Origin: Planctomycetota bacterium
GTDB taxonomy: Bacteria > Planctomycetota > Phycisphaerae > Phycisphaerales > Phycisphaeraceae
Direction of reading: 5' to 3'
Assembly: GCA_039024495.1 (NCBI GenBank)
Contig: JBCCQE010000006.1
Span: 52,244-116,243, forward strand
DNA length: 64,000 nucleotides
The notes beneath the pieces are model-generated. The model worked only from the letters and a program-made list of their open reading frames with translations. It did no database searches and was not told the origin of the DNA. The translations under genes and the position numbers were made by a program. Of this stretch, positions 16,429 through 59,143 are shown in pieces (the stretch's first letter is position 1; each line of letters begins with the position of its first letter).

Positions 16429-18429
16429 CTACGACGCGGAGGTCGCCGCGGGTTCGTCGGGTTGTCCCGAGGTCGGCGGCGAGCGGCGAGTCGATCGAGC
16501 CGCCAGGCCCAGCGACCACGCCACCATCGCCCACAGCAGCGCCCACCACGGCCACCGCCCCCACCAGCCGTACCACGTCGTCGCGTCGCTGAGCCCGACC
16601 TCGGCGATCAGCACACCCTCCTGCCCGGTCGGCAGCTCGGCGACGATGCGGCCGGTCGGGTCGATCACCGCCGACACGCCGGTGTTGCACGCCATGACGA
16701 CGGGCACGCGGTTCTCGATCGCCCGGAATGTCGCGATCTGCAGCATCTGCCGCCGCATCGAATCACCGAGATACCAACCGTTGTTGGTGTGGTTGGTGAG
16801 CAGGTCGACACGCTTCTCGAATTTTGTGTCTGGAGCCAGCGGATTCAACCCACGGGCTTCGCCGTAGACCATCTCACGCACGACGCCCGGCGAGACGATC
16901 TCGTAGCAGATGGGCGTGGCCACGCGAACCGTTTCGCGTTGCGAGTTTCGCGTTTCGAGTTCCACCTCGAACACCACCGGCCCCTCGCCCGCGTCCAGCG
17001 TGTAGTCCCCGCCCCACGGGCTGATCGTCTCGGCAATGAGCTTGCGCCACCACGGAAAGGTCTCACCCAGCGGGATCGTCTCACCGGCGACCACGAGGTG
17101 CTGCTTGTCGTAGCGATCGACCGACGCACCGTCGCTGCGCGTGCCCATCACCACGCCCTGCCGCGGCGCGTAGAGGCTGACCGAGTTGGTGCGTCCCTCG
17201 GGGAAGCGCACGGTGCGGGTGTGGCCCTGGTCGTCGGTGATCTGCCGCTCGACCGCGCCCTCGATCGCCGTGCCCCCGACAAAGATCGGCACGTCGGCCC
17301 GATCCACGATCGCGGTGAGCTGGGCGTGGTACTCGCGGCTGCCCCAAAAGCCCCATCGCTGCTGCAATTCGGGCACCTCGATCTCACGCGCCGCCCGATT
17401 CACCGGCCCCGGCAACGCCGACTCCGGCCAGACCATCAGGTCAACCGGCTCGTCACCCTCCGCGGCTTCAAGCGTCAACTGCAACAGCCGCCGCCATCGC
17501 TGCGCTTCGTCCTCGGCGGTCACGGCCACCGAGTTGTCGTTCATGTTGTTTGTTTGAATCGCGGCGACACGGACCGGCACGCGTCTCTCCGACGAGAGTT
17601 CACTTTTGACGATGAACAGCGAGAAACCCACCGGCAGCAATAGTGCCGGCACCAGGAAAATGGCGAAGTTATTGAGCGAACCGGCCATGCGCTTAAAGGC
17701 AATCCCGGAACTTTCTGCTGACCTTCTGTCGCGTCGAAATCGGTGGAGGACACAAACAAAGCCAAGCGCCACACCGTTCATCAACGCCACAACAAATGAC
17801 GCAGCCTGCTCACCAGCAAATGTCGATGCTAGAGCCCAATTCACTTCACTGTGATCAATCGACCACGCCCCCTGCGTGTGTCCCAGCGCGAACCAGCCGA
17901 AGCCGCCGAAGGGTTGGGTGACGCGCAGCAACTCGACGCTGACCCACGCGGCGGGCAACAGAAACGCGGCGGGCCAGCGGGTCTTGCGAGTCAGCCAGCC
18001 GAACCACGCGAACGCGGCGGCGAAGAACAGGCCCTCGACGGCAGCGATCACGAACCAGCCGGGGAACGACACGCCGCGCACCCAGGCCGTGCGGGTGAAC
18101 CACCAGAGGGCCCAAATCAGCCATGCGATGGCAAATGCTCTCACAGAGGCACCGAGGCACAGAGCCAGCAGCCGCGCGCGGAGACTCAGAGGCGCGGAGG
18201 CGGGAGTCATTGAGTCCGCATTGCTCCGCGTCTCAGCGTCTCCGCGCGCGACGTCATCCCCAACCTCTGCGGCTCTGTGGCTCTGTGCGAGCCCTTGGAT
18301 CGACGCCCACGCGGCGGGGACCAGGGCGATCCACGCCAGCGGCCACCAGCCGGGGTGCGGGAAGGCCAGACCCAGCAGCGCCGCGCTGAGGGCGTGGCCG
18401 AAGGCGAGTTGCGCGGTGCGAGATCGCAT
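16429..18429 (-). CDS. lnt: apolipoprotein N-acyltransferase (long form)
   Basis: N-terminal LAFPHPGWWPLAWIALVP and multiple TM helices. The C-terminal CN-hydrolase domain shows VRVAAIQTN, MVWPESALP and TPICYE. It carries an internal palindromic insertion, listed separately. Confidence 0.9.
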   Translation of the reverse strand: MRSRTAQLAFGHALSAALLGLAFPHPGWWPLAWIALVPAAWASIQGLAQSHRAAEVGDDVARGDAETRSNADSMTPASAPLSLRARLLALCLGASVRAFAIAWLIWALWWFTRTAWVRGVSFPGWFVIAAVEGLFFAAAFAWFGWLTRKTRWPAAFLLPAAWVSVELLRVTQPFGGFGWFALGHTQGAWSIDHSEVNWALASTFAGEQAASFVVALMNGVALGFVCVLHRFRRDRRSAESSGIAFKRMAGSLNNFAIFLVPALLLPVGFSLFIVKSELSSERRVPVRVAAIQTNNMNDNSVAVTAEDEAQRWRRLLQLTLEAAEGDEPVDLMVWPESALPGPVNRAAREIEVPELQQRWGFWGSREYHAQLTAIVDRADVPIFVGGTAIEGAVERQITDDQGHTRTVRFPEGRTNSVSLYAPRQGVVMGTRSDGASVDRYDKQHLVVAGETIPLGETFPWWRKLIAETISPWGGDYTLDAGEGPVVFEVELETRNSQRETVRVATPICYEIVSPGVVREMVYGEARGLNPLAPDTKFEKRVDLLTNHTNNGWYLGDSMRRQMLQIATFRAIENRVPVVMACNTGVSAVIDPTGRIVAELPTGQEGVLIAEVGLSDATTWYGWWGRWPWWALLWAMVAWSLGLAARSTRRSPPTSGQPDEPAATSAS
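18140..18291. repeat. ~150-bp imperfect palindrome of ~8-nt units, in frame inside lnt (element E)
   Basis: Outer arms are CACAGAGG CACCGAGG CACAGAGC versus CTCTGCGG CTCTGTGG CTCTGTGC. Inner arms are CGCGCGCGGAGAC..GGCGCGGAG versus CTCCGCG..GTCTCCGCGCGCG. The symmetry centre is near 18210. Confidence 0.85.
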
Positions 18430-18554
18430 GGGGGCAATGTATGCGGGGGTGCCATAGCCGGGACGCGTGGCGTCCCGGCTGCTTGAGCTTGCGGACCATC
18501 GCGAAGCACTGCATCGCGTTGCGATGCAGCTTTGGTGTCTGTATCCCCGCGCGT

Positions 18555-18581
18555 AAAAAACCCCGCGCGTCCTGCACGGGG
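18555..18581 (-). terminator. putative Rho-independent terminator of xerC
   Basis: The minus-strand RNA reads GCCCCG-loop-CGGGG followed by UUUUUU (A-run 18555-18560 on plus). It lies 54 nt downstream of the xerC stop. Confidence 0.6.
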
Positions 18582-18634
18582 CTTTGCGTATGCCCTGCGG
18601 TTGCCCGCCTGGCCAAGGAGAGAGCTGGGTTGAA

Positions 18635-19753
18635 CTACATCGCCCGGGGGTGGGCGTCTTCGTAGGCGTTGCGCATCCGCATGGTCGACAGGTGCGTGTA
18701 GACCTGCGTGGTCGACAGCGACTGGTGGCCGAGCAGCTCCTGGACGCTGCGGAGGTCGGCGCCGTTGTCGAGCAGGTGGGTGGCGAACGAGTGCCGCAGG
18801 GTGTGCGGGCTAATCGACGGATCGAGGCCGGCGCCCTTGAGGTACTTGTCGAGCTTGCGGCGGACGGAGCGCGAGCTGAGGCGGCCGCCGTTTTTGTTGA
18901 CGAATAGCGCGACGTCGCCGGTCTCGGCCATCTGCTTGCGGACGCCGGCGAAGCGTGGGTCCGGCTCGAGCAGCATCAGGTAGTGGCGGATGGCGGCCAT
19001 GGCGTGGCTGCCCAGGGGAACGACGCGTTCCTTCTTGCCCTTGCCGCGGACGCGGAGCGTCTGGTTGGCGAAGTCGAGGTCCTTGCGGTCGAGGTCGACC
19101 AGCTCGGAGACGCGGACGCCGGTGGAGTACAGCGTTTCGAGGATCGCGCGGTCCCGGCCGCCAAGGGTCTCGGAGTTGTCGGGCGCGGAGAGCAGGGCTT
19201 CGATCTGCTCGACGGTGATGGCCTTGGGCAAACGCTTGGCCTGCTTGGGCGTGCGGATGAGGACCATCGGGTTGGCATCGCAGAGGCCGTGCTTGAGCAT
19301 CCACTTGTAGAACGAGCGGAGCGTGGCGATCTTGCGGGCGGTGGTGGCGGGCGAGTAGCCGAACTGGTCGAGGTGGGCGAGGAAGCCGCGGACGACCATG
19401 GCGTCGGCCCGCTGCATCTTGGCCTCGACGGCGGCGGCGAGGTTGCCGTCGAAGTCGTCGGCGGGGGTGGTGGCCTCGAGATACTCGACGAACTGCCGCA
19501 GGTCGGCGCCGTAGCACCGCGCGGTGTACGGGCTGAAGTGGCGCTCGTGGCGGAGGTAATCGGCGAAGCGATCGAGGAGCGAGCCGCTGGATGCCTGGGC
19601 GTCGGCCGCGGGCGCCGCGGGGGCTTGGCTTTCGACGGCACCGGCCTGGGGCTCGGCCTCGACATCGGCGTCGATGCCGGTCAGGCGGAGGTTGGGCGTG
19701 GGCGGAGCCGGGGCGGGCTCGTCGTGTTGGAGTCGGGGGGCGGGTTCGGACAT
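18635..19753 (-). CDS. xerC: tyrosine site-specific recombinase XerC/XerD family
   Basis: N-terminal SAM-like FADYLRHERHFSPYTARCYGADL. The catalytic domain shows GVRVSELV..., HTLRHSFATHLL and LLGHQSLSTTQVYTH. GGAG lies upstream. There is a ~55-aa N-terminal extension. Confidence 0.9.
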   Translation of the reverse strand: MSEPAPRLQHDEPAPAPPTPNLRLTGIDADVEAEPQAGAVESQAPAAPAADAQASSGSLLDRFADYLRHERHFSPYTARCYGADLRQFVEYLEATTPADDFDGNLAAAVEAKMQRADAMVVRGFLAHLDQFGYSPATTARKIATLRSFYKWMLKHGLCDANPMVLIRTPKQAKRLPKAITVEQIEALLSAPDNSETLGGRDRAILETLYSTGVRVSELVDLDRKDLDFANQTLRVRGKGKKERVVPLGSHAMAAIRHYLMLLEPDPRFAGVRKQMAETGDVALFVNKNGGRLSSRSVRRKLDKYLKGAGLDPSISPHTLRHSFATHLLDNGADLRSVQELLGHQSLSTTQVYTHLSTMRMRNAYEDAHPRAM

Positions 19754-19763
19754 CTCGGTCTCC

Positions 19764-20057: not shown

Positions 20058-20098
20058 GTCGGCTCGGTTCCTTGCGAACCGGCCGAGGCCGATCCGCT

Positions 20099-20863
20099 CT
20101 ACGGCTCCTCTTGCGTCGCTGCCTGCAGCTCGGCCAGTCGGCCGGCTTCGGCGGCGAGCAGGCGCTCTCGCACCCGGGTAGCCGCGAACTCGGTGAAAAG
20201 GTCCATGCTCAGCATGTAGCGTCGCCAGGGGACGACCATGTCGTCGTGGCTGCCGCGTTGCCTGGCGTATCGCTCGATCGCGTCGCGGATCGCCGGCGAG
20301 CCGCCGTCGATGTAACCGCTGACGGTGGTGATCGGCTGGCGATCGTGCGTCTCGTAGCCAATCGGACGGCTCAACTCATCCGTCGCAGCAGCGCTCAAGT
20401 CGCGCACGGCTTGCGGGTCGGCGAACCACGGCCGATCGGTGTCGACATACATCTCCACGGCGATCCCCAGCTTGGGCGGGGGGTACGGCTCGTAGGCCGT
20501 GACGTTGCCGATGATCAGCGCGTCGACGCCGAGCGTCCGCCGCAGGGCGACGGCCGCGTTCTTGTCGGCGACCTCCGCCATGCCGAGGCTTTCCATCGCC
20601 TCGAGCGTGCGGTTGACCGGCAGCACGTCGATGCCCGGCGATAGCTCGATCTGACGGGCGAGGTGATCGGCGATCCGTGCCGTGTCGACCGTCTGCGTGC
20701 CGGACTGATTGCGAAGCGGCGCGACGGCCCAGACCTGCCGGGCGGGGTACAAGCCCGCTGCGGCATCGGGGTCGCCGGTCGTGCGGCAGCCGACGTGGGC
20801 CAGCAAGGGCAGGCCGGTCAGCGTGAGCACGAGCGCCAGGCGCAGGACCTTTTCACATGTCAT
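20099..20863 (-). CDS. lipoprotein, TolB-N/LpoB-like (254 aa)
   Basis: I use the internal start MTCEKVLRLALVLTLTGLPLLAHVGC, which carries a lipobox. Core VWAVAPLRNQSG...IADHLARQI...LGVDALIIGNVTAY resembles the two lipoproteins at 1212-2551. Confidence 0.7.
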   Translation of the reverse strand: MTCEKVLRLALVLTLTGLPLLAHVGCRTTGDPDAAAGLYPARQVWAVAPLRNQSGTQTVDTARIADHLARQIELSPGIDVLPVNRTLEAMESLGMAEVADKNAAVALRRTLGVDALIIGNVTAYEPYPPPKLGIAVEMYVDTDRPWFADPQAVRDLSAAATDELSRPIGYETHDRQPITTVSGYIDGGSPAIRDAIERYARQRGSHDDMVVPWRRYMLSMDLFTEFAATRVRERLLAAEAGRLAELQAATQEEP

Positions 20864-20946
20864 GGCATCCTGCCTCGCTGACGCCACCGGACCTCCGCCG
20901 GGGCAACGTTGGTTCGACAAGGCTCGGCCCTGCCGGGTTCGTCGGG

Positions 20947-22347
20947 TTACGGCGTCGGCACCTCGGCCGTCGCTTCGTTCATCGCCTCGCCGGGGTCGCC
21001 GGGCTGGGCACCGGTGTCGGCGATCGCGGTGTCGCCGAGGCTGCTGAGGTCGGCCGCGAGTTGCAGCGACTTCTGTGGGCTGATCGCCCAGATGTTGTCG
21101 AGCCCGTTGGGCCCGCGGTTGGACACGAAGAAGATCGCGCCCTGGGGCGACCAGATCGGCTGAAGGTTGGCAAACCGACCGCCGGTCATGCGGGTCCGCT
21201 GCGTGCCATCGGCGCGCATCACCCACACATCGGCCTGATTCGGCCTTCTGGCCCCATCGGCGTGCGGGGCGATCACCGTTGAGAAAACGATGTGCCCGCC
21301 GTCGCTGGACCACTGCGGCGTGATGCACGCGGCGTTCGCCGAGATCGCCAGCTCCGTCGGCGGGCCGGGGTCGCCATCGATCAGGTCCATCGACCAGACG
21401 CTGAACCAGCGCGGGTCGATTTCGCGGGCCTTCTGATAAAGGATCGTCTGCTCGGTCGGGTGCCAATCGGGGAACAGCCCTTGGCCGATGATCTGCCGCG
21501 AGCCGGGCTCGCTGAGCTTGGCGAGCACGATCTCCCACTGCTGGCTCTGCTCGTTGAACGAGGAGTACACGAGCTGGGTGCCGTCGGGGCTGAAGTCGGG
21601 GTGAAGGTCGTCCGAGCCGTCGAAGGTGATCTGCACCGGCCGGCCACCTCGGGCATCCATGAGGTAGATGTTCCAGTTGCCGTCGCGATCCGAGGCGAAG
21701 GCGAGCTTGGAGCCATCCGGGCTGAACGCCGGCATCATGTCGTTGGCCGGGTCGTTGGTGAGCTGCGTGACGGCGCTGGAGCCGACCTTCTTGGCGTAGA
21801 TGTCGGAGGTGCGCCGGTGACGGGTCGAGGCATAGGCGATCACGCCGCCATCGGGGTGCATCGCGGGGTCGAAGTCGGCGCCCTCGGCGGTGGTGGTGAT
21901 GCGGTGGATGTCCTCGAAGCCGTCGAGCGGGCTGCGCGGGGCGTAGCTGCTGCGAAAGGCGTTGTCGCCGAAGAGCCCGAGCCGGCCGAGGCCGAGGTCG
22001 GCCATCGTCCCGCGGTGGGGCGTGTTGGCGATCGGCGGGACCGGGGCGTTGGAGACCGGGGCGATCGTCGGGTTGTTGCCCGAGCCGTTGGTATGGTCAA
22101 AGCCGACCGGCGCGGCCTGGGCGTCGCCGAACTGAGCCCCGGCAAAGCGCTGCTGGGCCAGCTCGCCCGCGGCACGCTGCTCGGCGAGGTCTTCCTTGAA
22201 TTGGGCGTACTCGACCGCCTGCTTCTTGTCGTGCGGCCTCAGGCCAAAGGCCCCCGTGTACTGCTGGCAGCCCGTCAGCCCCGCGACACCCATCGCGGCG
22301 GCGAACCCGGCAAGCAATTTCAAGGTCTGGGTTCGTGGACGGGGCAT
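20947..22347 (-). CDS. TolB-like beta-propeller lipoprotein
   Basis: Repeated FSPDGSKLAFASDRDGNWNIY / FSPDGTQLVYSS / WSSDGGHIVFS blades. The N-terminus MPRPRTQTLKLLAGFAAAMGVAGLTGC carries a lipobox, with AGGAGG 5 nt upstream of this ATG. Confidence 0.85.
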   Translation of the reverse strand: MPRPRTQTLKLLAGFAAAMGVAGLTGCQQYTGAFGLRPHDKKQAVEYAQFKEDLAEQRAAGELAQQRFAGAQFGDAQAAPVGFDHTNGSGNNPTIAPVSNAPVPPIANTPHRGTMADLGLGRLGLFGDNAFRSSYAPRSPLDGFEDIHRITTTAEGADFDPAMHPDGGVIAYASTRHRRTSDIYAKKVGSSAVTQLTNDPANDMMPAFSPDGSKLAFASDRDGNWNIYLMDARGGRPVQITFDGSDDLHPDFSPDGTQLVYSSFNEQSQQWEIVLAKLSEPGSRQIIGQGLFPDWHPTEQTILYQKAREIDPRWFSVWSMDLIDGDPGPPTELAISANAACITPQWSSDGGHIVFSTVIAPHADGARRPNQADVWVMRADGTQRTRMTGGRFANLQPIWSPQGAIFFVSNRGPNGLDNIWAISPQKSLQLAADLSSLGDTAIADTGAQPGDPGEAMNEATAEVPTP

Positions 22348-25663: not shown

Positions 25664-26563
25664 ATGCAGCCCTACCTCGATCTGCTCCGCCACGTCCTCA
25701 AGCACGGCCACGACAAGCCCGACCGAACCGGCACCGGCACCCGATCCGTCTTCGGCCACCAGATGCGATTCGACCTCGCCCAAGGCCTGCCCCTGGTCAC
25801 CACCCGCAAGATCCACACGCGCACCCTCATCGTCGAGCTGCTCTGGTTCATCGCCGGCGGACGCAACAACAACGAACTCCGCAACCAGAACGTCACCATC
25901 TGGGACGAATGGGCCGACCCCGACACCGGCGACCTCGGCCCCATCTACGGCCACCAATGGCGCCACTGGCCTGACAACCCCAACGACCCGGACGCAGGCC
26001 ACACCGACCAGCTCGCCAACGTCCTCGACTCCCTCAAACACAACCCCCACTCCCGCCGCCACATCGTCTCCGCCTGGAACGTCGCCCAACTCGACGACAT
26101 GGCCCTGCCACCCTGTCACACCCTCTTCCAGTTCTACGTCACCCCACCCACGACCGACGACTCCTCCCACGCCGCGGCTGAGCGCAGCGAAGCCGCGGGT
26201 CCGCATCGCAACGATCGCAACAACAAAACTTCCGGGGGGCGCCTCTCCTGCCAGCTCTACCAACGCTCCGGCGACCTCTTCCTCGGCGTCCCCTACAACA
26301 TCGCCGGCTACGCCCTGCTCACCATGATGATCGCCCACACCCTCGGCTACGCCCCCGGCGACTTCGTCCATACCCTCGGCGACGCCCACATCTACGACAA
26401 CCACCGCGAACAAGTCGACACCCAGCTCCGCCGCACCCCCCGCCCCCTGCCCACCGTCCACCTCAACCCCCAAGTCACCTCCCTCTTCGACTTCACCCCC
26501 CAAGACATCACCATCCGCGGCTACGACCCCCACCCCCCCATCAAAGCCGCGGTCGCGGTGTGA
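25664..26563 (+). CDS. thyA: thymidylate synthase (ThyA) with ~30-aa internal insertion
   Basis: [52 protein letters not shown] and GDAHIY. The insertion lies between FQFYV and LSCQ. Confidence 0.95.
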
Positions 26564-26603
26564 TCAGCGACTCACGCCGCGTGAGTCGATCACTACAACA
26601 ATT

Positions 26604-26737
26604 AGCGAAGGCCGCGGAGACGCGAAGGCGCGAAGAAGAATGTCAACACGTCTCACGCCGACGCGAGTACGCTTGGATGAACCGTAAAGAAACGATTCCT
26701 CAACTCCGCGTCTTCGCGCCTCCGCGCGCTTCGCGAT
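26604..26737. repeat. octamer-periodic inverted-repeat element A (thyA-folA spacer)
   Basis: The left arm is GCGAAGG CCGCGGAG ACGCGAAG GCGCGAAG. The right arm is CTCCGCGT CTTCGCGC CTCCGCGC GCTTCGCG. About 63 nt of lower-GC sequence separates them. Confidence 0.8.
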
Positions 26738-26754: not shown

Positions 26755-27282
26755 ATGCCCCCCTCCATCTCCCTCATCTACGCTCGCGCCGAGAACGGCT
26801 GCATCGGCAAAGACGGCCGCATGCCCTGGCACCTCCCGCAAGACTTCAAGCACTTCAAACGCACCACCATGGGCAAGCCCATCCTCATGGGCCGCAAGAC
26901 CTACGAAGACCACTCCTCCGCCCTGCCCGGCCGGCTCAACGTCGTCATCACCCGCAACCGCGCCTATCAGCCCGCCGAGGGCGTCCGCGTCGCCCACTCG
27001 CTCGAAGACGCCATCGACCTCGCCTACCGCCAGACCGGCTCGCAAGAGGTCTTCGTCATCGGCGGCACCCTCTTCTTCAACGCCGCCCTGCCCATGGCAT
27101 CCGACGTCTACGAAACCGTCGTCCACACCACCCTCGAAGGCGACGCCTTCCTCAAGACCTACGACTTCACCGGCTGGAAGACCCGCACCCTCGCCGAATA
27201 CCCCGCCGACGACAAACACGCCTACGCCTTCACCATCTACCACCACTGCCGCCGCGCCAACTCCCCCTTCATCGAAGTCTGA
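26755..27282 (+). CDS. folA: dihydrofolate reductase
   Basis: ISLIYARAENGCIGKDGRMPWHLPQDFKHFKRTTMGKPILMGRKTYE, with position downstream of thyA. Confidence 0.95.
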   Translation: MPPSISLIYARAENGCIGKDGRMPWHLPQDFKHFKRTTMGKPILMGRKTYEDHSSALPGRLNVVITRNRAYQPAEGVRVAHSLEDAIDLAYRQTGSQEVFVIGGTLFFNAALPMASDVYETVVHTTLEGDAFLKTYDFTGWKTRTLAEYPADDKHAYAFTIYHHCRRANSPFIEV

Positions 27283-31692: not shown

Positions 31693-31798
31693 ATCCTCAC
31701 TCGCTACCGCCGTCCGCATCGGACTTCCAACAGCTCCACTGCAGCTATATACTCGCGAATATTCTACTTTCGCGGGACTAAGAATCTTGAGTTTCCCA

Positions 31799-33694
31799 AT
31801 GCCCAACTTGCTGCGAGCGATGTATCAGCGATCACTCCGCGACCCTTGCACACCCCACGCAACGGCGATCGAACCGCTCGAACCTCGCATGATGTTCAAC
31901 GGCACGCTGCCTTCTTCGCCTGCCGATGCGGTTTCGACCGTCGTCTATTCTTCAATAAGCGAAGCAGAAATTACCGAACCGGCCGACCACGAACGCGCCA
32001 TCCGGCACGAAGCCTTCGATGCCGATGGGCCCCACGGAACGGCATCAACTCAGGGGCTCTCAGCAACCGGCCCAACCACACCAGACCCGGACTCTGTCTC
32101 GTTCATCTACGACGCGGATAGTCACGACGGCACCCTCGACTCACGAGCTGCATTCTCTTTGGTGGCAACTGACCTCGACGGAGATGGGGTCCTCGACCTG
32201 ATGAGTGGCACGACCGCCTGGCTGGGCAAGGGAGACGGCACGTTTCGTGAGGCCTCGCCGACCGTCGTGGCCGACCTAGTTAATTCCCCAACGGTCTTTC
32301 TTGCAGGTGATCTCGATGGAAACGGCTTGGGTGACCTAGTCATCTACGACTACTATTTCGAGGACGACGACCGCTTGCTCGTGCTGCTTGTCCAGCCCGA
32401 TGGGATCATTGAGATATCTCAAGAGATCACGACCGAGCCAGGGACGCAAAACCCTCGCGGAACAACGGCCTCGGTGTCTGGGGGAGTCATCGAATTCGGC
32501 GATCTAGATGGAGACGGCAATCAAGACATGGTGACCGCGAGTTATCTGCTCGAGCCCACTCGCGTATCGTCTTTGAACATCTACTTCGGCAAGGGTGACG
32601 GCACGTTCGAGCAGCCGATCAATCGCCCGGTATCCGATGGGAGTATCTGGAACTTTGCCATTGCAGACTTTGACCGTGACGGGTCAGAAGACATCGCGGT
32701 CGTCGCTGGATTTAGCGACTTACGCCTTATCTATTTTGGAGGACCAAGCCGGTCCTTCGAAGTAGCCACAGCTTTCGGCGACACATCTAGCATAACCCTC
32801 ATCGACGAAGACTTTGATGGCGATGGCATCACAGACCTAGGCATAGGGACATCAATCCTCTTTGGCAATGGCGACGGGACTTTTGAGCTGTTCACAGGAC
32901 CCCCATGGCCAACATTTCCATACGGGATTGCTGCCGCCGATCTCGACGGAAACGGGACCGAAGACATCATCGTCAGCGAGCACTATCCCGGCTCGATTTA
33001 TGTCGGGTTCATGGCTCCGGATCGAACCATGACCGACTTCGTGGAGTTCGATGCGGGCATCAACGACTCTGGATTGCTCGTGCCCGCCGATCTGGATCGC
33101 GACGGCGACGTTGATCTGATCAACATCGGGATTGAGAGTTATCACTTCGAACCCCTGATCAATCAGCGAATTCCTTCTCCGGTCGACGACCCGCCAGTGG
33201 ATGACCCACCGTTAGACGACTCTCCTGCCGACGGGCCACCCACGGATGACCCGCCGGTAGACGATCCACCCATCGAAGACCCCCCGATGGAAGACCCGCC
33301 AGCAGACGACATTCCGACGTCTACGGTGGTTGGATTCGACAAGATGAAGAAGCGTGCCGCCGAGGCGGGGCGTAAGGCGAAGTTCCGTGTCGTCCGCGAG
33401 GGAGATCTTTCCAAAAAAACCCGGGTGAGGCTCGACTTTGACGGCAAGGCCAAGTATCGCAAGGACTACGATCTTAAGGTCAGTGGCGGGGGGAAGATGA
33501 ACGGTAAACGGCTCGTCATCCCCAAGGGCAAGAAAGCCGTAAAAATCACCGTCATCCCTCAAGATGACAGGAAGCGCGAGGGAAACGAATCGATCAAGAT
33601 CTCCGTGCGTCAGACCGCAGCGGTTTCGCTACCCATTAACGACGTGCCGAGCCTGCGAGCCTTGTTCAAAAGCAAAATCAAAGACAACGATTGA
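31799..33694 (+). CDS. secreted FG-GAP/VCBS-repeat protein with (DDPPx)n linker and Calx-beta-like C-terminal domain
   Basis: Seven D-x-D-G-D/N-G-xxD calcium-loop repeats (DLDGDGVLDL, GDLDGNGLGDLV, ADFDRDGSEDIAV ...). N-terminal IEPLEPRMMF motif. A 15-nt-periodic DDPPV array lies near 33178-33318. The C-terminus FRVVREGDLSKKTRVRLDF...ITVIPQDDRKREGNESIKISV is Calx-beta-like. GC is clearly lower than in the flanks. An alternative TTG start is at 31787. Confidence 0.85.
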   Translation: MPNLLRAMYQRSLRDPCTPHATAIEPLEPRMMFNGTLPSSPADAVSTVVYSSISEAEITEPADHERAIRHEAFDADGPHGTASTQGLSATGPTTPDPDSVSFIYDADSHDGTLDSRAAFSLVATDLDGDGVLDLMSGTTAWLGKGDGTFREASPTVVADLVNSPTVFLAGDLDGNGLGDLVIYDYYFEDDDRLLVLLVQPDGIIEISQEITTEPGTQNPRGTTASVSGGVIEFGDLDGDGNQDMVTASYLLEPTRVSSLNIYFGKGDGTFEQPINRPVSDGSIWNFAIADFDRDGSEDIAVVAGFSDLRLIYFGGPSRSFEVATAFGDTSSITLIDEDFDGDGITDLGIGTSILFGNGDGTFELFTGPPWPTFPYGIAAADLDGNGTEDIIVSEHYPGSIYVGFMAPDRTMTDFVEFDAGINDSGLLVPADLDRDGDVDLINIGIESYHFEPLINQRIPSPVDDPPVDDPPLDDSPADGPPTDDPPVDDPPIEDPPMEDPPADDIPTSTVVGFDKMKKRAAEAGRKAKFRVVREGDLSKKTRVRLDFDGKAKYRKDYDLKVSGGGKMNGKRLVIPKGKKAVKITVIPQDDRKREGNESIKISVRQTAAVSLPINDVPSLRALFKSKIKDND

Positions 33695-44317: not shown

Positions 44318-44329
44318 TGGACTCACTGC

Positions 44330-44480
44330 ATCGCGAAACGCGCGAAGGCGCGGAGGCGCGAAGACCTAGAAGACAAACACTCGTTCCGATCGAATCGCAC
44401 AACTCGGCCTCAAAACCTCGCTTCCGCTCCATGTCGTCAAACCCTCCTCCGCGACTCCGCGCCTCCGCACCCTCCGCGAT
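44330..44480. repeat. octamer-periodic inverted-repeat element B (esterase-uvrD spacer)
   Basis: The left arm is ATCGCGAAACGCGCGAAGGCGCGGAGGCGCGAAG. The right arm is CTCCGCGACTCCGCGCCTCCGCACCCTCCGCGAT. About 83 nt of lower-GC sequence separates them. It uses the same CGCGRAGG unit type as element A. Confidence 0.8.
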
Positions 44481-44534
44481 TCACAAACGACAGGCACAAA
44501 AAGAGACCCGCCAATCGGCTCGTACAATCCACCC

Positions 44535-49299: not shown

Positions 49300-51510
49300 A
49301 TGCCCACCACGCTCGACACCCCCTTCGCCCCCGCCGACTACCGCCACGTCACCTACGCCTGGGACGTCGCCACCGCCGCCGCGATGGACCCCCTCGACCG
49401 GCTGGTCTACCGCTCCAACCTGCTCGGCTCCGACCAGCGCATCACCAACACCGGCGGCGGCAACACCTCCTCCAAGGCCACCCAGCCCGACCCCGTCACC
49501 GGCCAGGACGCCGACGTACTCTTCGTCAAAGGCTCCGGCGGCGACCTCCGCACCTCCAAGCGGGCCAACTTCGCCTCGCTCTACCTCGACGGCCTGCACC
49601 GCCTGCGCGACCAATACCTCGCCGAGCCCGACCGGGGCCTTAAGTCCGCCGCCGAAGACAACATGGTCGCCAAGGCCAAGCACGTCACCTTCAATCTCAA
49701 CCCCCGCGCCTCGTCCATCGACACGCCGCTGCACGCCTACCTCCCCGGCCGACACGTCGACCACATGCACCCCAACGCGATCATCGCCATCGCCGCCAGC
49801 CGCAACGCCCAAGCCATCGCCGCCAAGCTCTTCGGCGACCGCATGGGCTACGTCCCTTGGATGCGCCCCGGCGTCGAGCTCGGCTACGCCATGCAGCAGG
49901 CCCAAGAGGCCAACCCCCAGATCGATTCGATCCTCATGGGCGGGCACGGCCTCATCAACTGGGCCGACGACGACAAGGCCTGCTACGAGCTCACGCTCTC
50001 GCTCATCGAAACCGCCGCCCGCTACATCGAAGACCACGACCAAGCCGACCAGACCTTCGGCGGCCAGAAGTACGCTCAGCTCTCGCTCGACGCCTCGCGC
50101 GAGCTGGCCATCGATCTCATGCCCTGGCTGCGCGGCCGTGTCAGCCAGCAGAACCGCTTCATCGGCACGTGGGAAGCCCGCCCCGAGGTGATGCGCTTCG
50201 TGCATTCCGTCGACGCCGCCCGCCTCGCCGAGCTCGGCACGAGCTGCCCCGATCACTTCTTGCGCACCAAGATCAAGCCACTCTACGTCGACTGGGACCC
50301 CGCCACCGGCGACATCGACGCGCTCAAGGCCAAGATCGACGCCGGCCTCGAGCAATACCGCGTCGACTACGCCGACTACTACAACGCCTGCAAGCACCCC
50401 GACTCGCCGGCCATGCGCGACCCCAACCCCACCGTCGTGCTCATCCCCGGCATCGGCATGCTCGCCTGGGGCAAGTCCAAGAGCGAGTCGCGCGTCACCG
50501 CGGAGTTCTACTGCTGCGCCGTCGAGGTCATGCGCGGCGCCGAAGCGATCGACGAATACGTCGCCCTGCCCCGCCAGGAGGCGTTCGACATCGAGTACTG
50601 GGCGCTCGAAGAAGCCAAGCTCCAACGCATGCCGCCCGAGAAAGAGCTGGCCCGCCGCGTCGTCGCCGTGATCGGCGGCGGGTCGGGCATCGGCAAGGCC
50701 ACCTGCGACCGCCTCGCGCCCGACGACGCCTCGATCGTCGCGATCGACCTCAACGAGGCCGCCGCCCAGGCCACCGCCGACGACCTCACCGCCAACCTCG
50801 GCCAGGGCATCGGCGTCGCCGGGACCGAGCTCTCCGGCTGCGGGCCCGCCATCGCCGCCTCGGCCAACGCCACCGACCGCGCCTCTCTCCGCGCCGCCTA
50901 CCGCCAGGCCGTCCTCGCCTACGGCGGCATCGACCACCTCGTCATCACCGCCGGCGTCTTCGTCCCGCCCGACAAGACCGGCCACATCCCCGACGACAAG
51001 TGGGCGCTGACCTTCGGCGTCAACGTCGCCGGCGTGTACTTCGCGGCCGACGAGCTCAAAGCCATCTTCAACGCCCAAGGCCTCGACGGCTCGGTCGTCA
51101 TCACCACCTCGGTCAACGCCGTGGTCTCCAAGAAGGGCTCGGTCGCCTACGACACCTCCAAGGCCGCCGCCAACCACCTCGTGCGCGAGCTGGCGATCGA
51201 GCTCTCGCCCAACGTCCGCGTCAACGGCGTCGCCCCCGCCACCGTCGTCAAGGGCTCGACCATGTTCCCGCGCGACCGCGTGATCGCCTCGCTCACCAAG
51301 TACGACATCGCCTTCGACGAAGCGGCCGACGACGACACCCTCCGCAATCAGCTCGCCGAGTTCTACGCCCAGCGCACGCTCACCAAGCAGCCGATCACGC
51401 CCGAGGACCAGGCCGAGGCCATCGCCTTTTTGCTCGGCTCCAAGGCGTCCAAAACCACCGGCCAAGTCCTCCACGTCGACGGCGGCCTCGCCGATGCTCA
51501 GCTTCGCTGA
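49300..51510 (+). CDS. rhaEW: bifunctional rhamnulose-1-phosphate aldolase / short-chain dehydrogenase
   Basis: The N-terminal class II aldolase-like half shows NTGGGNTSSK and HVDHMHP. The C-terminal SDR half shows VIGGGSGIGKA and YDTSKAA. The protein is 736 aa. Confidence 0.85.
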   Translation: MPTTLDTPFAPADYRHVTYAWDVATAAAMDPLDRLVYRSNLLGSDQRITNTGGGNTSSKATQPDPVTGQDADVLFVKGSGGDLRTSKRANFASLYLDGLHRLRDQYLAEPDRGLKSAAEDNMVAKAKHVTFNLNPRASSIDTPLHAYLPGRHVDHMHPNAIIAIAASRNAQAIAAKLFGDRMGYVPWMRPGVELGYAMQQAQEANPQIDSILMGGHGLINWADDDKACYELTLSLIETAARYIEDHDQADQTFGGQKYAQLSLDASRELAIDLMPWLRGRVSQQNRFIGTWEARPEVMRFVHSVDAARLAELGTSCPDHFLRTKIKPLYVDWDPATGDIDALKAKIDAGLEQYRVDYADYYNACKHPDSPAMRDPNPTVVLIPGIGMLAWGKSKSESRVTAEFYCCAVEVMRGAEAIDEYVALPRQEAFDIEYWALEEAKLQRMPPEKELARRVVAVIGGGSGIGKATCDRLAPDDASIVAIDLNEAAAQATADDLTANLGQGIGVAGTELSGCGPAIAASANATDRASLRAAYRQAVLAYGGIDHLVITAGVFVPPDKTGHIPDDKWALTFGVNVAGVYFAADELKAIFNAQGLDGSVVITTSVNAVVSKKGSVAYDTSKAAANHLVRELAIELSPNVRVNGVAPATVVKGSTMFPRDRVIASLTKYDIAFDEAADDDTLRNQLAEFYAQRTLTKQPITPEDQAEAIAFLLGSKASKTTGQVLHVDGGLADAQLR

Positions 51511-51647
51511 ATAAAACAGGAAGGCAGGAAATTCAGAAAAGCAGAAAAACGGAATCGGCCGGACCGATGTCAGACGCAACGCCTCGCCCGGCGTGATGCC
51601 CACCCATTTCCCGCTTTCTTGATTTCCTGCTTTTCTGATTTCTTAAT
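51511..51647 (+). repeat. octamer-periodic inverted-repeat element C (rhaEW-rhaB spacer)
   Basis: It starts at the base after the rhaEW stop. Left-arm units are CAGGAAGG CAGGAAAT TCAGAAAAG CAGAAAAA CGGAAT. Right-arm units are CATTTCCC GCTTTCTT GATTTCCT GCTTTTCT GATTTCTT. Several arm mismatches are G(left)/T(right). Confidence 0.85.
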
Positions 51648-51668: not shown

Positions 51669-53105
51669 ATGCCCACCCCCGCCCACCTCGCGATCGACAT
51701 GGGAGCCGAGTCCGGCCGCGTCATCGTCGGCACCCTGGCCAACGGCCGCGTCGCCATCGACGAGGCCCACCGCTTCAACCACCTCGCCGTCGATCTGCCC
51801 ACCGGCCTGCACTGGGACACCACCGGCATCCTCCGCGAGATCACCGCCGGCCTCGCCGTCGCCGCCCGCCGGTGCGCCGAACGCGGCCTCACCCCCACCA
51901 CCGTCGGCGCCGACACCTGGGGCGTCGACTTCGCCCTGCTCGACACATCGCACGAGCTGCTCGGCCTGCCGCACTGCTACCGCGACCCCCGCACCGCCCC
52001 GCACTACGACGCCGCGCTCGCCAAGCTCGGCAAGCCCCGCATCTACGGCCGCACGGGCATCCAGTTCATGCCCATCAACACGCTCTACCACCTCATGGCC
52101 GCCCACGCCGACACGCCGGGCCTCGTCCAGCAAGCCCACCGCCTGCTGTTCATGCCCGACCTCATCCACTTCTTCCTCTCCGGCAAGCTCGCCAACGAAC
52201 GCACCATCGCTTCGACCTCGCAGATGCTCGACACCGACGGCCGATGGGCGACCGACCTGCTCGCCCAGCTCGACCTGCCGACGCACATGCTCCACGCCCC
52301 CGTCGAGCCCGGCACCAGGCTCGGCGCCCTCCGCCCATCCCTCGCCGAAGCGACCGGCCTGCCCTCCGACTTCGTGGTCGTCCTCCCCGGTTCGCACGAC
52401 ACCGCCTCGGCCGTCGCCGCCGTACCCGCCGACCCCGCCGACCACAACTGGTGCTACCTCTCATCTGGAACGTGGTCGCTGCTCGGCGTCGAGCGTGACA
52501 CCCCCGACACGTCCGACGCCGCGCTCGCCGCCGGGTTCACCAACGAAGCCGGCGTCGGCGGCAAAATCCGCTTCCTCAAAAACATCTCCGGGCTCTACAT
52601 CGTCCAGGAAATCCGCCGCGACCTCGCCCGCCAAGGCAACGAGCACGACTACCCCACGCTCACCAGGCTCGCCGAAGAGGCCGCCGGCTTCGAGACCACG
52701 CTCGACGCCAACGACCCGCGCTTCGCCACGCCCGGCGACATGCCCGCCAAGCTCCGCGCCGCCGCGGAAGAAACCGGCCAGCCCGCCCCACAAACCCCCG
52801 GCGAGCTCGTCCGCTGCGCCCTGCGCTCGCTGGCGAAGTGCTACGCCGACACGATCGACCAGCTCCGCGACCTCGGCAACACCATCGACCGCATCCACCT
52901 CGTCGGCGGCGGCGGCCAGAACCAACTGCTCAACCAACTCACCGCCGACGCCACCGGCCTGCCCGTCATCGTCGGCCCGACCGAAGCCACCGCCATCGGC
53001 AACCTGCTCACCCAAGCCCTCGGCGGCACGGCCGACTCGCTCAAGAAAATACGCGAGGTCGTGCGCGCTTCGACCGAGCTGTCCACCGTCACTCCGGCGC
53101 GCTGA
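51669..53105 (+). CDS. rhaB: rhamnulokinase (FGGY family)
   Basis: LAIDMGAESGRV, HRFNH...LHWD, and the C-terminal motifs IHLVGGGGQN and TAIGN. Confidence 0.85.
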   Translation: MPTPAHLAIDMGAESGRVIVGTLANGRVAIDEAHRFNHLAVDLPTGLHWDTTGILREITAGLAVAARRCAERGLTPTTVGADTWGVDFALLDTSHELLGLPHCYRDPRTAPHYDAALAKLGKPRIYGRTGIQFMPINTLYHLMAAHADTPGLVQQAHRLLFMPDLIHFFLSGKLANERTIASTSQMLDTDGRWATDLLAQLDLPTHMLHAPVEPGTRLGALRPSLAEATGLPSDFVVVLPGSHDTASAVAAVPADPADHNWCYLSSGTWSLLGVERDTPDTSDAALAAGFTNEAGVGGKIRFLKNISGLYIVQEIRRDLARQGNEHDYPTLTRLAEEAAGFETTLDANDPRFATPGDMPAKLRAAAEETGQPAPQTPGELVRCALRSLAKCYADTIDQLRDLGNTIDRIHLVGGGGQNQLLNQLTADATGLPVIVGPTEATAIGNLLTQALGGTADSLKKIREVVRASTELSTVTPAR

Positions 53106-54234: not shown

Positions 54235-54385
54235 CACCGCATAACCTCCGCAAGGATTGACTGTGGCGATGATACCGCCCAGCGGGGTCGCCGAGACAAA
54301 CTTCGAGCGCTCACGAGGCGATCCGCTTGATGCGAGCCATGCAATCCGTGGCAACGGCCGATTTCGACGCGAAGTCCGGCGGAAG

Positions 54386-56655: not shown

Positions 56656-58527
56656 ATGCTGCGTGAGCTGCACATCTCGAATCTGGCGGTCATCGAGGAC
56701 GCGACGGTCGAGCTCGGGCCCGGGCTGAACGTGTTCACCGGGCAGACGGGGGCAGGCAAGTCGCTGGTGATGGGGGCGATCGAGTTGCTGCTGGGGCTGC
56801 GGTCGGGGTCGGGGATGCTGCGGGACGGAGCGGACCAGGGGCGAGTCACCGGGCTGTTTGAGCTGGGCGGAGGGCCGCTGGCCGAGGCGGTCGCGGGGGT
56901 GGTCGATCAGCCCGTGGAGTCGTGCGGCGAGCTGCTGGTGACGCGCAAGCTGTTCGCGTCCGGGCGGACGGGGGTGTCGATCAACGGCCGACCGGCGACG
57001 GCGGCGATGGTTCGGGCGGTCGGCCAGCGGATGGTCGACATCCACGGCCAGCACGACCACCAGCTCCTGCTGCGGGGCTCAGAACAACGCGCAGCGGTGG
57101 ACGCCTACGCGGGGGTTGGCGGCGAGGGCGGGTTGCTCGAGACCTATCGGCAGGCTTGGGAGCGGTGGCGTGGGTTGTCGCGCCGGGCGGAGGAGTTGGC
57201 CGAGTCGGCAGAGCTGCGACGGCAGAAGCTGGACCTGGCGGAGTTCCAAGCCGGCGAGATCGACGCCGCCCGACCGACCGCCGGCGAGCTGCCCGAGCTG
57301 GAGGCGCGGCACGCGGTGCTGGCAAACCTAGCGACGATCAAAGGGCGGGCGGGGCAGGTGATCGACGCGATGAGCCAGGGCGACGGCGCGATCGTCGGGC
57401 GGCTGGAGGCCATGACGCTGGTGCTCCGCGAGCTGGCCGAGCTGGACGAGGGGCTGACCGAGGTGGCCGAGGCGGTGCGCGGGGCGACGCTGGCGCTGGG
57501 CGAGGCGGGGTTCGACCTGGGGCGGCGGGTGGACCGGCTCGAAGCCGACCCGGGGGAGCTGGCGGAGGTGGAAGACCGGCTGAACACGCTGAATCGGCTG
57601 GTCAGCAAGTACGGCGATCGATGGAGCAGGCCCGGGCGGCGCACGCGGGTGGAGGCCCACGACGCGGACGAATGCCAGGCTGAAGACGCGATCGCGCCGG
57701 TGCTGCGACTGCGAGCCGAGCTGGGCGAAGAGATCGATCGTCTGCGCGGCGAGGACGACGCGCTCGACGGCATCGAAGAAGACGTTGCAATGGCACGCGT
57801 GGCCGTCGACCAGCACGCGGCGGCGCTCACGGCTAAGCGGGTGGCCGCGGCGCGTGAGATGAACCCACGCATCGAGGCGGAGCTGGGCGAGCTCGGCATG
57901 GCAGGGGCGCGGTTCGAGGTGGCGGTGATGCCCCGCGACGAGGGGCCGGGCCCTAGCGGGGCCGACCGCGTGGAGATGCGTGTGGCGACGAACGTCGGGC
58001 AGACGTACAAGCCGTTGGCGGACGTCGCCAGCGGCGGCGAGCTGAGTCGGGTGATGCTGGCGATCAAGTCGATCGCGCCCGCCCCTGGGAAAAACGTCAA
58101 GCGAGGCCGAGGGGGGCCGTGCGGCCGCGGCGGTGGGGGTCAGGGTGGGGGTGGCGGCGTGGACGTGCTGGTGTTCGACGAGGTGGATGCGAACATCGGC
58201 GGGCGGCTGGGCTCGGTGATCGGCCGCAAGATGCGCGACCTGGCGACGGGGTCGGGCCGACAGGTGCTGTGCATCACGCACCTGCCGCAGATCGCCGCCT
58301 TCGCCGATCGGCACCTGCACATCGCCAAGCGGGTCGAGGGCCGGGGCAAGGCGCGGCAGACGCGCACGACCGTCAGCGAACTCACCGGCAAGGCCCGCAT
58401 CGACGAGCTGGCCGAGATGATGGCCGGCCGCGAAGCCACGGCGACCACGCGGCGGCAGGCCCGCGAGATGGTCGGCGCGGCCATGGGTGGAACCACCGGC
58501 GAGACAAGCGAGCGGAGCGATGCGTGA
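56656..58527 (+). CDS. recN: DNA repair protein RecN
   Basis: MLRELHISNLAVIEDATVELGPGLNVFTGQTGAGKS, SGGELSRVMLAIK, VLVFDEVDANIGG and VLCITHLPQIAAFAD. Two hydrophilic insertions lengthen it to 623 aa. Confidence 0.92.
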   Translation: MLRELHISNLAVIEDATVELGPGLNVFTGQTGAGKSLVMGAIELLLGLRSGSGMLRDGADQGRVTGLFELGGGPLAEAVAGVVDQPVESCGELLVTRKLFASGRTGVSINGRPATAAMVRAVGQRMVDIHGQHDHQLLLRGSEQRAAVDAYAGVGGEGGLLETYRQAWERWRGLSRRAEELAESAELRRQKLDLAEFQAGEIDAARPTAGELPELEARHAVLANLATIKGRAGQVIDAMSQGDGAIVGRLEAMTLVLRELAELDEGLTEVAEAVRGATLALGEAGFDLGRRVDRLEADPGELAEVEDRLNTLNRLVSKYGDRWSRPGRRTRVEAHDADECQAEDAIAPVLRLRAELGEEIDRLRGEDDALDGIEEDVAMARVAVDQHAAALTAKRVAAAREMNPRIEAELGELGMAGARFEVAVMPRDEGPGPSGADRVEMRVATNVGQTYKPLADVASGGELSRVMLAIKSIAPAPGKNVKRGRGGPCGRGGGGQGGGGGVDVLVFDEVDANIGGRLGSVIGRKMRDLATGSGRQVLCITHLPQIAAFADRHLHIAKRVEGRGKARQTRTTVSELTGKARIDELAEMMAGREATATTRRQAREMVGAAMGGTTGETSERSDA

Positions 58528-58572
58528 GTCGCCCGCCCTGTCCGACCCGGCGGGACCGACTACACTGCCGCC

Positions 58573-59037
58573 ATGCAAGCAGCGGCGATGCTGACGATGG
58601 CCCAAGGGGCAATGGGGACCGCAACGGGGATGCGCGATTACGACGAGTTCAGCCTCTACGGCGCCGTCGGCATCCTCATTCTCATGGCGATTGTCTTCGG
58701 CGGGGCCAACGTCGTCCTCTCGCAATTCATCATTGGGCCCAAACGGTTCGGCCGCACGAAGGGCACGCCTTACGAGTCGGGCATGAACCCGATCGGCGAT
58801 GCGCGGCGGAGGTTCAACGTCCGCTTCTTCATCGTCGCGATGACGTTCCTGCTGTTCGACGTCGAGATCGTCTTCCTCTATCCGTGGGCGATGACGTTCC
58901 CGGCCCTGAACGACATGGCGGGGTCGGTCGGGGCCGAGCTGACGCCGTGGTTCATCGCTCGGGCGCTGTTCTTCGTGCTCACGACGGTCATCGCGTTCGC
59001 GTACGCCTTCCGCAAGGGCGTGTTCCGGTATGACTAG
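58573..59037 (+). CDS. nuoA: NADH-quinone oxidoreductase subunit A
   Basis: YESGMNPIGDARRRFNVRFFIVAMTFLLFDVEIVFLYPWA. The start is uncertain, and MRDYDEF at 58630 is possible. No nuoB follows. Confidence 0.85.
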   Translation: MQAAAMLTMAQGAMGTATGMRDYDEFSLYGAVGILILMAIVFGGANVVLSQFIIGPKRFGRTKGTPYESGMNPIGDARRRFNVRFFIVAMTFLLFDVEIVFLYPWAMTFPALNDMAGSVGAELTPWFIARALFFVLTTVIAFAYAFRKGVFRYD

Positions 59038-59048
59038 GCGATCGACAA

Positions 59049-59143
59049 AGAGCTGGAAAGCTGAAAAGCTGGAAACCTCGAAGCGCGTGCCGTGGCTCAT
59101 GCGTGATGCACATAGCTTTTTAGATTTTCAGTTTTCTAGCTCT
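59049..59143 (+). repeat. octamer-periodic inverted-repeat element D (nuoA-ruvA spacer)
   Basis: Left arm AGAGCTGGAAAGCTGAAAAGCTGGAAA pairs with right arm AGCTTTTTAGATTTTCAGTTTTCTAGCTCT. Hand pairing gives 22 Watson-Crick pairs, 4 G:T pairs and 1 mismatch over 27 positions. The G:T pairs work only in plus-sense RNA. Confidence 0.85.

Follow-up and report, generated by a model that had tools for sequence, protein, structure and literature searches.

We describe five long hairpins, A to E, in a 64-kb stretch of DNA (the window: 64,000 nucleotides of contig JBCCQE010000006.1) from a metagenome-assembled genome (MAG) entered at NCBI as Planctomycetota bacterium; the closest relatives found are MAGs of Planctomycetota and Phycisphaeraceae (Phycisphaerae-type). 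Each hairpin is an imperfect palindrome with arms made of tandem 8-nt units. In our view the five are likely to belong, as gene-less forms, to a widespread class of selfish palindromic insertions, of the type represented by the intervening sequences (IVSs) of 23S rRNA and the heptanucleotide repeats called STRR, in a variant built of octamers; their membership of the class is held with fair confidence. The full-length form of the class has a small cargo gene, of the PF05635/TIGR02436 or the GxxExxY family, between two inverted arrays of about four units each. The units are usually 7 nt long and of AG(T/G)NNNN type; in the lineage studied here they measure 7-9 nt, and in the window 8. The evidence comprises a common architecture, a thyA-folA site shared with gene-bearing elements, an AG polarity of the arms, co-orientation with the flanking genes, insertion relative to compact spacers in other genomes, and turnover of palindromes at fixed sites.

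Five palindromes with periodic arms

The search for elements covered the 64-kb window of one MAG, and its three longest inverted repeats proved to be B (44327-44363 / 44447-44483, 37 nt, 78%), the inner part of E (18173-18199 / 18224-18250, 27 nt, 89%) and C (51510-51539 / 51615-51644). A gapped, einverted-like scan gave seven hits, six of them within A-E, with loops of 24-100 nt. TRF called period-8 arrays in most arms, at 2.8-4.6 copies each: four in E (18142-18164, CACAGAGG, 2.9 copies; 18176-18206, GCGCGGAG, 4 copies; 18224-18246; 18265-18287), two in A (26605-26635, GCGAAGGC, 3.8 copies; 26704-26727), two in B (44340-44363, 3.0 copies; 44447-44468), and one each in C (51606-51642, 4.6 copies) and D (59051-59075, AGCTGGAA, 3.1 copies). 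Neither C's left arm nor D's right arm received a period-8 row. The window has five inverted repeats with a score of 14.4 or more and four palindromes with 7-9 nt periodic arms, against averages of 0.6 and 0.03, respectively, in 60 dinucleotide-shuffled versions of its full length. Folds of both strands were more stable than dinucleotide-shuffled controls, with z = -2.3 to -6.4 across the elements. Inverted-repeat scans, TRF, folds and shuffles therefore agree with the original prediction, made from the sequence of the window, that these five loci are long imperfect inverted repeats with period-8 arms and form one architectural class of palindrome, tandem-repeat arms and non-complementary centre. 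Element A is unchanged in L001, an independent Logan assembly from another read set, which rules out an assembly artefact.

GC content is 0.50-0.68 in the elements and about 0.69 in the window, and the 64 kb contain at least three unit types. A, B and the inner palindrome of E share the unit type CGCGRAG and ATCGCG...CGCGAT ends, while their loops cannot be aligned; C and D share the type C[A/T]GRAAAG and differ by paired A:T to T:A changes. The elements are indeed not copies of one miniature inverted-repeat transposable element (MITE) consensus, as had been proposed, but the accompanying statement that every copy differs went too far, given these two shared types. Among the 39 window open reading frames (ORFs) annotated with Pfam we found no transposase, reverse transcriptase or REP-associated tyrosine transposase (RAYT), and no target-site duplication was seen at the elements. 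The window contains no rRNA; Rfam at gathering thresholds gave only tRNA-Val, and at permissive E-values, for the A and B regions only, just chance-level hits to eukaryotic miRNA precursors.

One site between thyA and folA with different occupants

Element A lies in the thyA-folA spacer. Its left array (26605-26635; coordinates of all elements are given without a strand) consists of GCGAAGGC/CGCGGAGA/CGCGAAGG units in 3.8 copies and is identical in L001; the centre (26636-26703, 68 nt) has no ORF and no detectable similarity to the PF05635 element of the relatives described below; and the right array (26704-26735) is of CTCCGCGC type and ends 20 nt before the folA ATG at 26755. A separate hairpin of about 12 bp (GATCAGCGACTCACG CCG CGTGAGTCGATCAC, 26563-26594) extends from the thyA stop codon and stands immediately upstream of A.

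We reached the orthologous thyA-folA spacers of four relatives through their FolA homologues. In two of these, L088 (FolA 94% identical) and L090 (78%), the spacer contains a gene of 132-133 amino acids of the PF05635/TIGR02436 family (profile match E = 4e-35 and 1e-35, respectively). This family, the '23S rRNA intervening-sequence protein', is a four-helix bundle with a distant relation to Avd of diversity-generating retroelements (DGRs). The L090 gene is flanked by perfect inverted arrays of CTTAGGG in four copies (score 26.8, period 7), with a left arm of CCTAGGG CTTAGGG CTTAGGG CTTAGGA and a right arm of TCCCTAAG CCCTAAG CCCTAAG CCCTAAG. The two arms in L088 are degenerate, and the inverted-repeat scan gave no hit there. 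In L091 (FolA 66%) the same spacer holds a gene-less hairpin of CACGAAG units. Between the window and L088, thyA at its 3' end and folA at its 5' end match nearly base for base, and inside the elements nothing aligns when the window spacer is globally aligned with those of L088 and L090. A PF05635 element in L088 and L090, and gene-less hairpins of other units in L091 and the window, thus represent one site with different occupants. Derivation of A by deletion from a PF05635 element at this site is conceivable but finds no support, as the global alignment to L088 and L090 gave no convincing similarity inside the element.

A nested palindrome in frame within lnt

Lnt is an enzyme essential in many Gram-negative bacteria. 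The lnt gene of the window occupies 16429-18429 on the minus strand, and E (18135-18295) lies in frame within it, at approximately codons 47-97, between hydrophobic segments one and two of the protein; the reading frame is unbroken through E, and Pfam LNT_N is matched on both sides. The fold of the whole element has z = -6.4 on the plus and -5.9 on the minus strand. An outer palindrome of CACAGAGG type encloses an inner one of CGCGGAG type. The outer left array (18142-18164, CACAGAGG/CACCGAGG, 2.9 copies, period 8 by TRF) pairs with the outer right array (18265-18287, CTCTGTGG, 2.9 copies) in a stem visible in the fold, and the inner left array (18173-18206, GCGCGGAG type, 4 copies, the unit type of A and B) faces an inner right array (18224-18250, CTCCGCGT, 2.9 copies) with 89% complementarity. 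E had been described as one nearly continuous stem; it is a long palindrome, but a nested pair inside a coding sequence.

In an alignment of Lnt proteins, P0001-P0005 have an insert at the site of E and distant Lnt proteins lack it. In four relatives with an Lnt of 59-72% identity the insert stands at exactly the place of E. GGACGAA heptamers form a near-perfect palindrome there in L004 and L002 (period 7; 100% and 92%, respectively); L086 has the same GGACGAA right arm as these two with a diverged left arm; in L005 the insert has largely decayed; and in the window the site holds the different, larger, nested octamer palindrome. A fixed site within lnt is therefore occupied by palindromes of unrelated sequence in sister lineages.

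Further repeats were observed in and beside lnt. A second array within the gene (16930-16961; 4.6 copies of CGTTTCG or 2.2 copies of a 14-mer; CTCGAAACGCGAAACTCGCAACGCGAAAC on the coding strand), followed by a short palindrome ACGCGAAACGGTTCGCGT, lies in a region of Lnt length variation (alignment columns about 640-690). Its unit CGCGAAAC is that of the decayed N-terminal insert in L005, and the array may be what is left of another in-frame element. The spacer between a xerC-like integrase gene and lnt carries a separate, non-periodic hairpin family: small stems with CAC/GTG or AAC/GTT loops in the window (18456-18480 and 18506-18531), inverted doublets resembling REPINs (TAGCTGCGACGCCACGCGTCGCTGAAAG ...) in L086 (263-348) and L005 (4430-4508), and a 29-bp near-perfect palindrome (CCATTAGCCCCCGGCTCTGCCGGGGGTGA) in L002 (9863-9960) and L004 (7469-7566). 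This spacer is another fixed site with changing palindromes. The L086 contig opens with a run of 32 C (1-32), probably a sequencing or assembly artefact.

Placement of B, C and D

The genes that flank A-D, eight in all, are on the plus strand, and each element fills the gap from stop to start. Element B, between an alpha/beta-hydrolase gene and uvrD, has a left arm (44327-44363) of units CGCGAAAC, GCGCGAAG, GCGCGGAG and again GCGCGAAG, and a right arm (44447-44483) of CTCCGCGA type in 2.8 copies, with five A.C mismatches on the plus strand. Element C lies between the genes for a fusion of class II aldolase and short-chain dehydrogenase/reductase (aldolase-SDR) and for an FGGY sugar kinase. Its left arm (51510-51548; CAGGAAGG, CAGGAAAT, TCAGAAAAG, CAGAAAA) begins at the stop codon of the former, and its right arm (ATTTCCTG type, 4.6 copies, 51607-51644) ends 25 nt before the kinase ATG at 51669. 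The left arm of D (59048-59078; AGCTGGAA, AGCTGAAA, AGCTGGAA) starts 11 nt after the nuoA stop, and its right arm (59114-59144, AGCTTTTTAGATTTTCAGTTTTCTAGCTCTT) abuts the TTG start of a ruvA-like gene; D has four G.T mismatches on the plus strand.

In more distant relatives the aldolase-SDR/FGGY spacer ranges from 4 nt to short, or is free of hairpins, which identifies C as an insertion. The contig scan with the aldolase-SDR protein reached mostly distant phyla (best identity 71%) and serves as a background set rather than as a set of orthologous spacers. The original prediction also saw a preference for spacers between genes of the same strand. A-D do lie in such spacers, all on the plus strand and filled from stop to start, but about 10 of the approximately 14 long spacers of the window are co-directional by our own count, and four out of four then has p of about 0.26, so that the preference is not significant.

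Inverted heptamer arrays around PF05635 genes

PF05635 is a very large family, matched at E <= 1e-5 by 7,982 of 8,000 scored candidates. We aligned 33 members and fetched 80 metagenome loci, 76 of them with enough flank. An inverted repeat brackets the gene within 160 nt in 56 of the 76 loci, against 3 of 76 when left and right flanks from different loci were combined. Of those 56 loci 55 have tandem-repeat arms, with a period of 7 in 53 and of 8 in two; under stricter scoring 50 loci were bracketed, 49 with tandem-repeat arms. The units are private to their loci, with 33 different consensus units in 42 loci (median 4.4 copies), and follow the pattern A-G-(T/G)-N-G-N-(C/T), AG being present in 37 of the 42 consensuses. 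AG-type units stand in the 5' arm and CT-type units in the 3' arm in 52 loci, and the other way round in two. The same polarity is found in all five window elements, where AG occurs 3-5 times and CT 0-1 times, except in D (CT = 4). Since an inverted repeat is the same on both strands, this polarity belongs to the hairpin and not to the gene. The gene upstream of PF05635 is co-oriented with it in 32 of 38 loci (++ in 21 versus -- in 2; crude ORF calls). Most PF05635-bearing contigs are only about 1 kb long, and many assemblies seem to break at these elements, which is consistent with flanks that are multi-copy or rich in repeats.

The same kind of carrier has a second, unrelated cargo. In L008, a Phycisphaeraceae MAG, a GxxExxY gene of the PD-(D/E)XK nuclease type (PF13366/TIGR04256; 20612-21034) lies between inverted 8-nt periodic arms, CGCCAAGA / CGTTGAGT .... 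By tblastn, phmmer and hmmsearch there is no PF05635 or GxxExxY gene in the window, nor any in the loci beyond L088, L090 and L008, and a search of viral contigs for GxxExxY relatives gave no hits. Loci of Verrucomicrobiota, Acidobacteriota and Chloroflexota likewise have gene-less hairpins with periodic arms (periods 6-10) in the spacers of operons, several of them in the same rhamnose-utilisation operon as C (L077 4948-5054, L057 6093-6169, L079 8613-8673). Among the relatives the unit period is 7 in L002, L004, L086 and L090, about 7-9 in the CACGAAG-based array of L091, and 9 in L006. The 8-nt period, put forward originally as the defining feature, does not define the class, since periods of 7 and 9 nt occur in relatives and the wider class has 7.

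The L079 contig, from an Ardenticatenaceae MAG, has four period-8 palindromes in 22 kb (8613-8673, 12740-12829, 13835-13898 and 20529-21501). Three have loops of 3-4 nt, and one arm pair brackets an opposite-strand gene for a 230-amino-acid membrane protein of the SfLAP family (PF11139). So high a density of hairpins is unusual, and this cargo differs in kind from the others.

Relation to known repeats

The original prediction knew of no described repeat family with such arms, which does not stand. The IVS of Coxiella burnetii, in helix 45 of 23S rRNA, is described as a selfish element of 428 nt with a 28-bp terminal stem and an ORF for S23p, a protein of the PF05635 family. Its 5' arm has three tandem GACAGAT heptamers in a number that varies between strains, and RNase III cuts within its stem; the same enzyme removes the IVSs of Salmonella, Leptospira and alphaproteobacteria (PMC4990558). 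Xanthomonas genomes contain about 185 GGGAATC arrays, of which 70-75 pairs are convergent, with positions conserved and length and sequence variable across species, and the Nostoc/Calothrix heptanucleotide repeats (GGGGAYT, 'STRR') are related to them (PMC4692102).

The window elements resemble the Coxiella-type IVS in a stem of about 28 bp, in a loop that is empty or contains a PF05635 gene, in the tandem units of the 5' arm (heptamers of variable copy number in Coxiella), in a presumed transcription within a host RNA and in being regarded as selfish. They differ in lying in mRNA spacers or a protein gene rather than in helix 25 or 45 of 23S rRNA, in lacking an ORF and in having 8-nt units, and cleavage by RNase III has been shown only for rRNA IVSs. 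They thus have the terminal inverted-repeat stem of an IVS, and neither the 23S rRNA location nor a PF05635 ORF was found in the window. The Xanthomonas and Nostoc arrays are alike in their short units of about four copies, intergenic enrichment and inverted pairs able to form stem-loops. They differ in that one unit dominates the genome and has been read as G-quadruplex-forming, whereas the window units have period 8 and no G-tracts. Of the features of the inverted tandem-array class, the window elements show inverted arrays, AG polarity and tight stop-to-start placement, but not the 7-nt unit; we treat the period of 8 as a variant rather than a ground for exclusion, because two of the 55 gene-bearing elements use it. 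PMC4692102 draws no link to PF05635 ('S23' is absent from its text), and in the open-access literature we found no study that draws a general link from heptamer arrays to PF05635 or GxxExxY genes.

In Beggiatoaceae, Cyanobacteria and Bacteroidetes, arrays of TAACTGA immediately precede start codons (PMC4679880). Like the window arrays they abut the starts of many unrelated genes, in several phyla, with no known mobilising mechanism; unlike them they are nearly all solo and direct (169 direct sets, 1 inverted), where the window arrays are paired and inverted.

Repetitive extragenic palindromes (REPs) and bacterial interspersed mosaic elements (BIMEs), Correia elements and Rickettsia palindromic elements (RPEs) had been named as nearest analogues, but IVS-type elements with PF05635 or GxxExxY genes are closer, and the RPE comparison is apt for the in-frame copy E and not for the rest. 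RPEs and Correia elements are small palindromic insertions, and RPEs are found in frame in protein genes, as E is. Correia hairpins in transcripts are RNase III substrates. Both families differ from the window elements in having a conserved consensus, with terminal inverted repeats and TA duplications in Correia, and neither has tandem-unit arms or a unit identity for each locus. Eukaryotic Foldback (FB) transposons have long inverted arms of short subrepeats, variable arm length and a central loop with or without genes. They are eukaryotic and of kilobase scale and have no sequence or protein relationship to the elements described here, so that the analogy is architectural only.

A proposed selfish hairpin in host transcripts

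Placed from stop to start between co-oriented host genes, or now and then in frame in a protein loop that tolerates them, as E is in Lnt, the elements are most probably transcribed from host promoters. In the transcript the two arrays could pair into a stem of 25-35 bp that would tolerate register shifts and the gain or loss of units. By analogy with the IVSs of 23S rRNA, such a stem may be a substrate of RNase III, so that the insertion would be clipped out or tolerated; within an operon, a cut by RNase III would sever or insulate the two cistrons. We place moderate confidence in this RNase III mechanism for the mRNAs in question. Private units, in arms that stay complementary, could arise if the arrays are homogenised locally, by slippage or by template switching or copying between the arms, or are replaced outright, and either process would explain why different palindromes stand at the same site in sister genomes. 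We infer the selfishness of the elements, their mobility and the mechanism of homogenisation from these patterns.

Several observations weigh against the reading of A-E as selfish, IVS/STRR-type insertions. The window has no PF05635 or GxxExxY gene, and the loops of A-D have no detectable similarity to gene-bearing elements, so that architecture and a shared site are all that links the two. The period of 8 is shared by only 2 of the 55 gene-bearing elements. Mismatches in the stems show no excess of G.U-compatible pairs on the sense strand (G.T 50, A.C 58, other 143), and the sense fold of B is much weaker than the antisense fold (-49 versus -83 kcal/mol); together with the five sense A.C mismatches of B, the weak sense fold argues against strong selection on a sense RNA stem. 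The insert in lnt persists, although RNase III would destroy the mRNA of this gene by cutting inside E. Neither transposition machinery nor target-site duplications were seen in the window, and the basis is 64 kb of genome. Transition mismatches follow the local strand skew, being A.C on the plus strand in B and G.T in D, as expected for neutral decay of palindromes that were once better. The plus-strand GC/AT skew of the window is strong and changes sign, cumulative GC skew having a peak near 6 kb and a minimum near 54 kb; its sign (6-54 kb versus 54-60 kb) is in places independent of gene orientation.

A much broader form of this reading is speculative, and we regard it as rather doubtful. 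It joins 23S rRNA IVSs, the cyanobacterial and Xanthomonas heptamers and the planctomycete hairpins in one phylum-spanning mobile superfamily, the module of which would be an inverted (AGNNNNN)n pair whose arrays are bound, or made by slippage, by the element's own Avd-like ring protein of four-helix bundles, which would renew the private unit; A-E would be its MITEs. If this were true, gene-less hairpins could colonise operon spacers and, in frame, essential genes.

Alternative explanations

The hairpins might instead be intercistronic RNA structures evolved in place and selected by the host, for protection against 3' exonucleases or for differential expression within operons, as REP hairpins are in malEFG, with slippage of short units as an easy route to a long stem. 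The stop-to-start position of all four intergenic copies between co-oriented genes would suit such a role, as would the significantly stable folds and the recurrence of similar hairpins in the same spacers of the rhamnose operon in unrelated phyla (L077, L057, L079). On the sense strand, however, no bias to G.U over A.C was found, and in B and D the direction of the mismatches goes with the local skew, as expected of neutral decay. E is within a coding sequence, sister genomes have a gene cassette of selfish type at the same site, and the spacers of other relatives are empty. We therefore find it unlikely that host-selected structures account for the elements, although individual copies may possibly serve as stabilisers or insulators.

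According to another explanation, which is compatible with selfish insertion but in our view improbable, the arrays are first of all periodic sites for a protein, and the hairpin is secondary. Each AG unit would contact one subunit of a ring protein, as spaced GAG/UAG triplets do in TRAP, with the pentameric four-helix-bundle protein as the candidate. AG is present in 37 of the 42 unit consensuses with the other five positions free, the median is about 4.4 units per arm, the Xanthomonas S23p homologue is a homopentameric toroid (cited in PMC4990558), the PF05635 family is distantly related to Avd of DGRs, and the arrays adjoin the start codon of the cargo gene. The same arms nevertheless flank the unrelated GxxExxY gene and occur in gene-less copies, which would demand a protein acting in trans. 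Unit lengths of 7, 8, 9 and 10 nt are all found, and the window has no PF05635 gene to supply the putative binding protein.

We consider it very improbable that A-E are classical non-autonomous transposons (MITEs, REPs/REPINs, or Correia- or RPE-like elements) mobilised in trans by an insertion sequence transposase or a RAYT. There are several palindromic copies, E is nested and in frame as Rickettsia RPEs are in genes, and A, B and the inner palindrome of E share a unit type and ATCGCG...CGCGAT termini; but there is no consensus outside the simple arms, the loops cannot be aligned, target-site duplications were not seen and the 39 Pfam-annotated window ORFs include no transposase, so that the features of a MITE are lacking. 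The features of REP, BIME and REPIN are lacking as well, for the arms are purine-rich, are not self-palindromic and have no GTAG/CGTC tag (PMC3733652), and in the wider class the units differ at nearly every locus.

Unusually long Rho-independent terminators or attenuators are hardly credible: although the hairpins directly follow stop codons and C and D have T-rich 3' arms, the loops measure 24-100 nt, no U-tract follows the stems, a promoter and terminator scan of 44-60 kb called nothing at the elements, no space is left for a promoter of the downstream gene, and E is intragenic, in agreement with the original distinction of the elements from ordinary terminators. Mimicry of Shine-Dalgarno and anti-Shine-Dalgarno sequences (GGAGG/CCTCC) by the arms was rejected as a general explanation, for it fits the window units but fails in the wider class, with its AGTGGNC-type units, and a G-quadruplex reading, as in PMC4692102, was rejected for window units that have no G-tracts.

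Implications and further repeats of the window

Knowledge of the rRNA IVSs and of the heptamer 'STRR' repeats goes back to about 1990; their origin, mobility and function have had no explanation, and the papers cited here treat them as separate. The results for selfish IVS/STRR-type insertions suggest that both are one architecture, inverted arrays of private units around an optional small gene, which is also found in operon spacers and can stand in frame within an essential gene. For us, the outcome of most interest is the combination of AG-polar private heptamers around PF05635 in most metagenomic loci, a carrier with two cargoes and turnover that persists at a site. Genes annotated as 'four helix bundle protein' and 'GxxExxY protein' are probably selfish cargo and not host functions, and in annotation such hairpins may be mistaken for terminators, small RNAs or MITEs.

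Two other regions of the window were noted. The spacer upstream of recA (9560-10702) has a solo C/A-rich array at 9263-9312 (5-6 copies of CCACCAA / CCCGCCAA, period 7-8) that lacks an inverted partner in its vicinity and recalls the 'singular' heptamer arrays described in Xanthomonas. At 31787-33694 the GC content is 0.59, against about 0.69 for the window, and the stretch, which codes for an FG-GAP repeat protein with an extensin-like proline-rich segment, may have been horizontally acquired.

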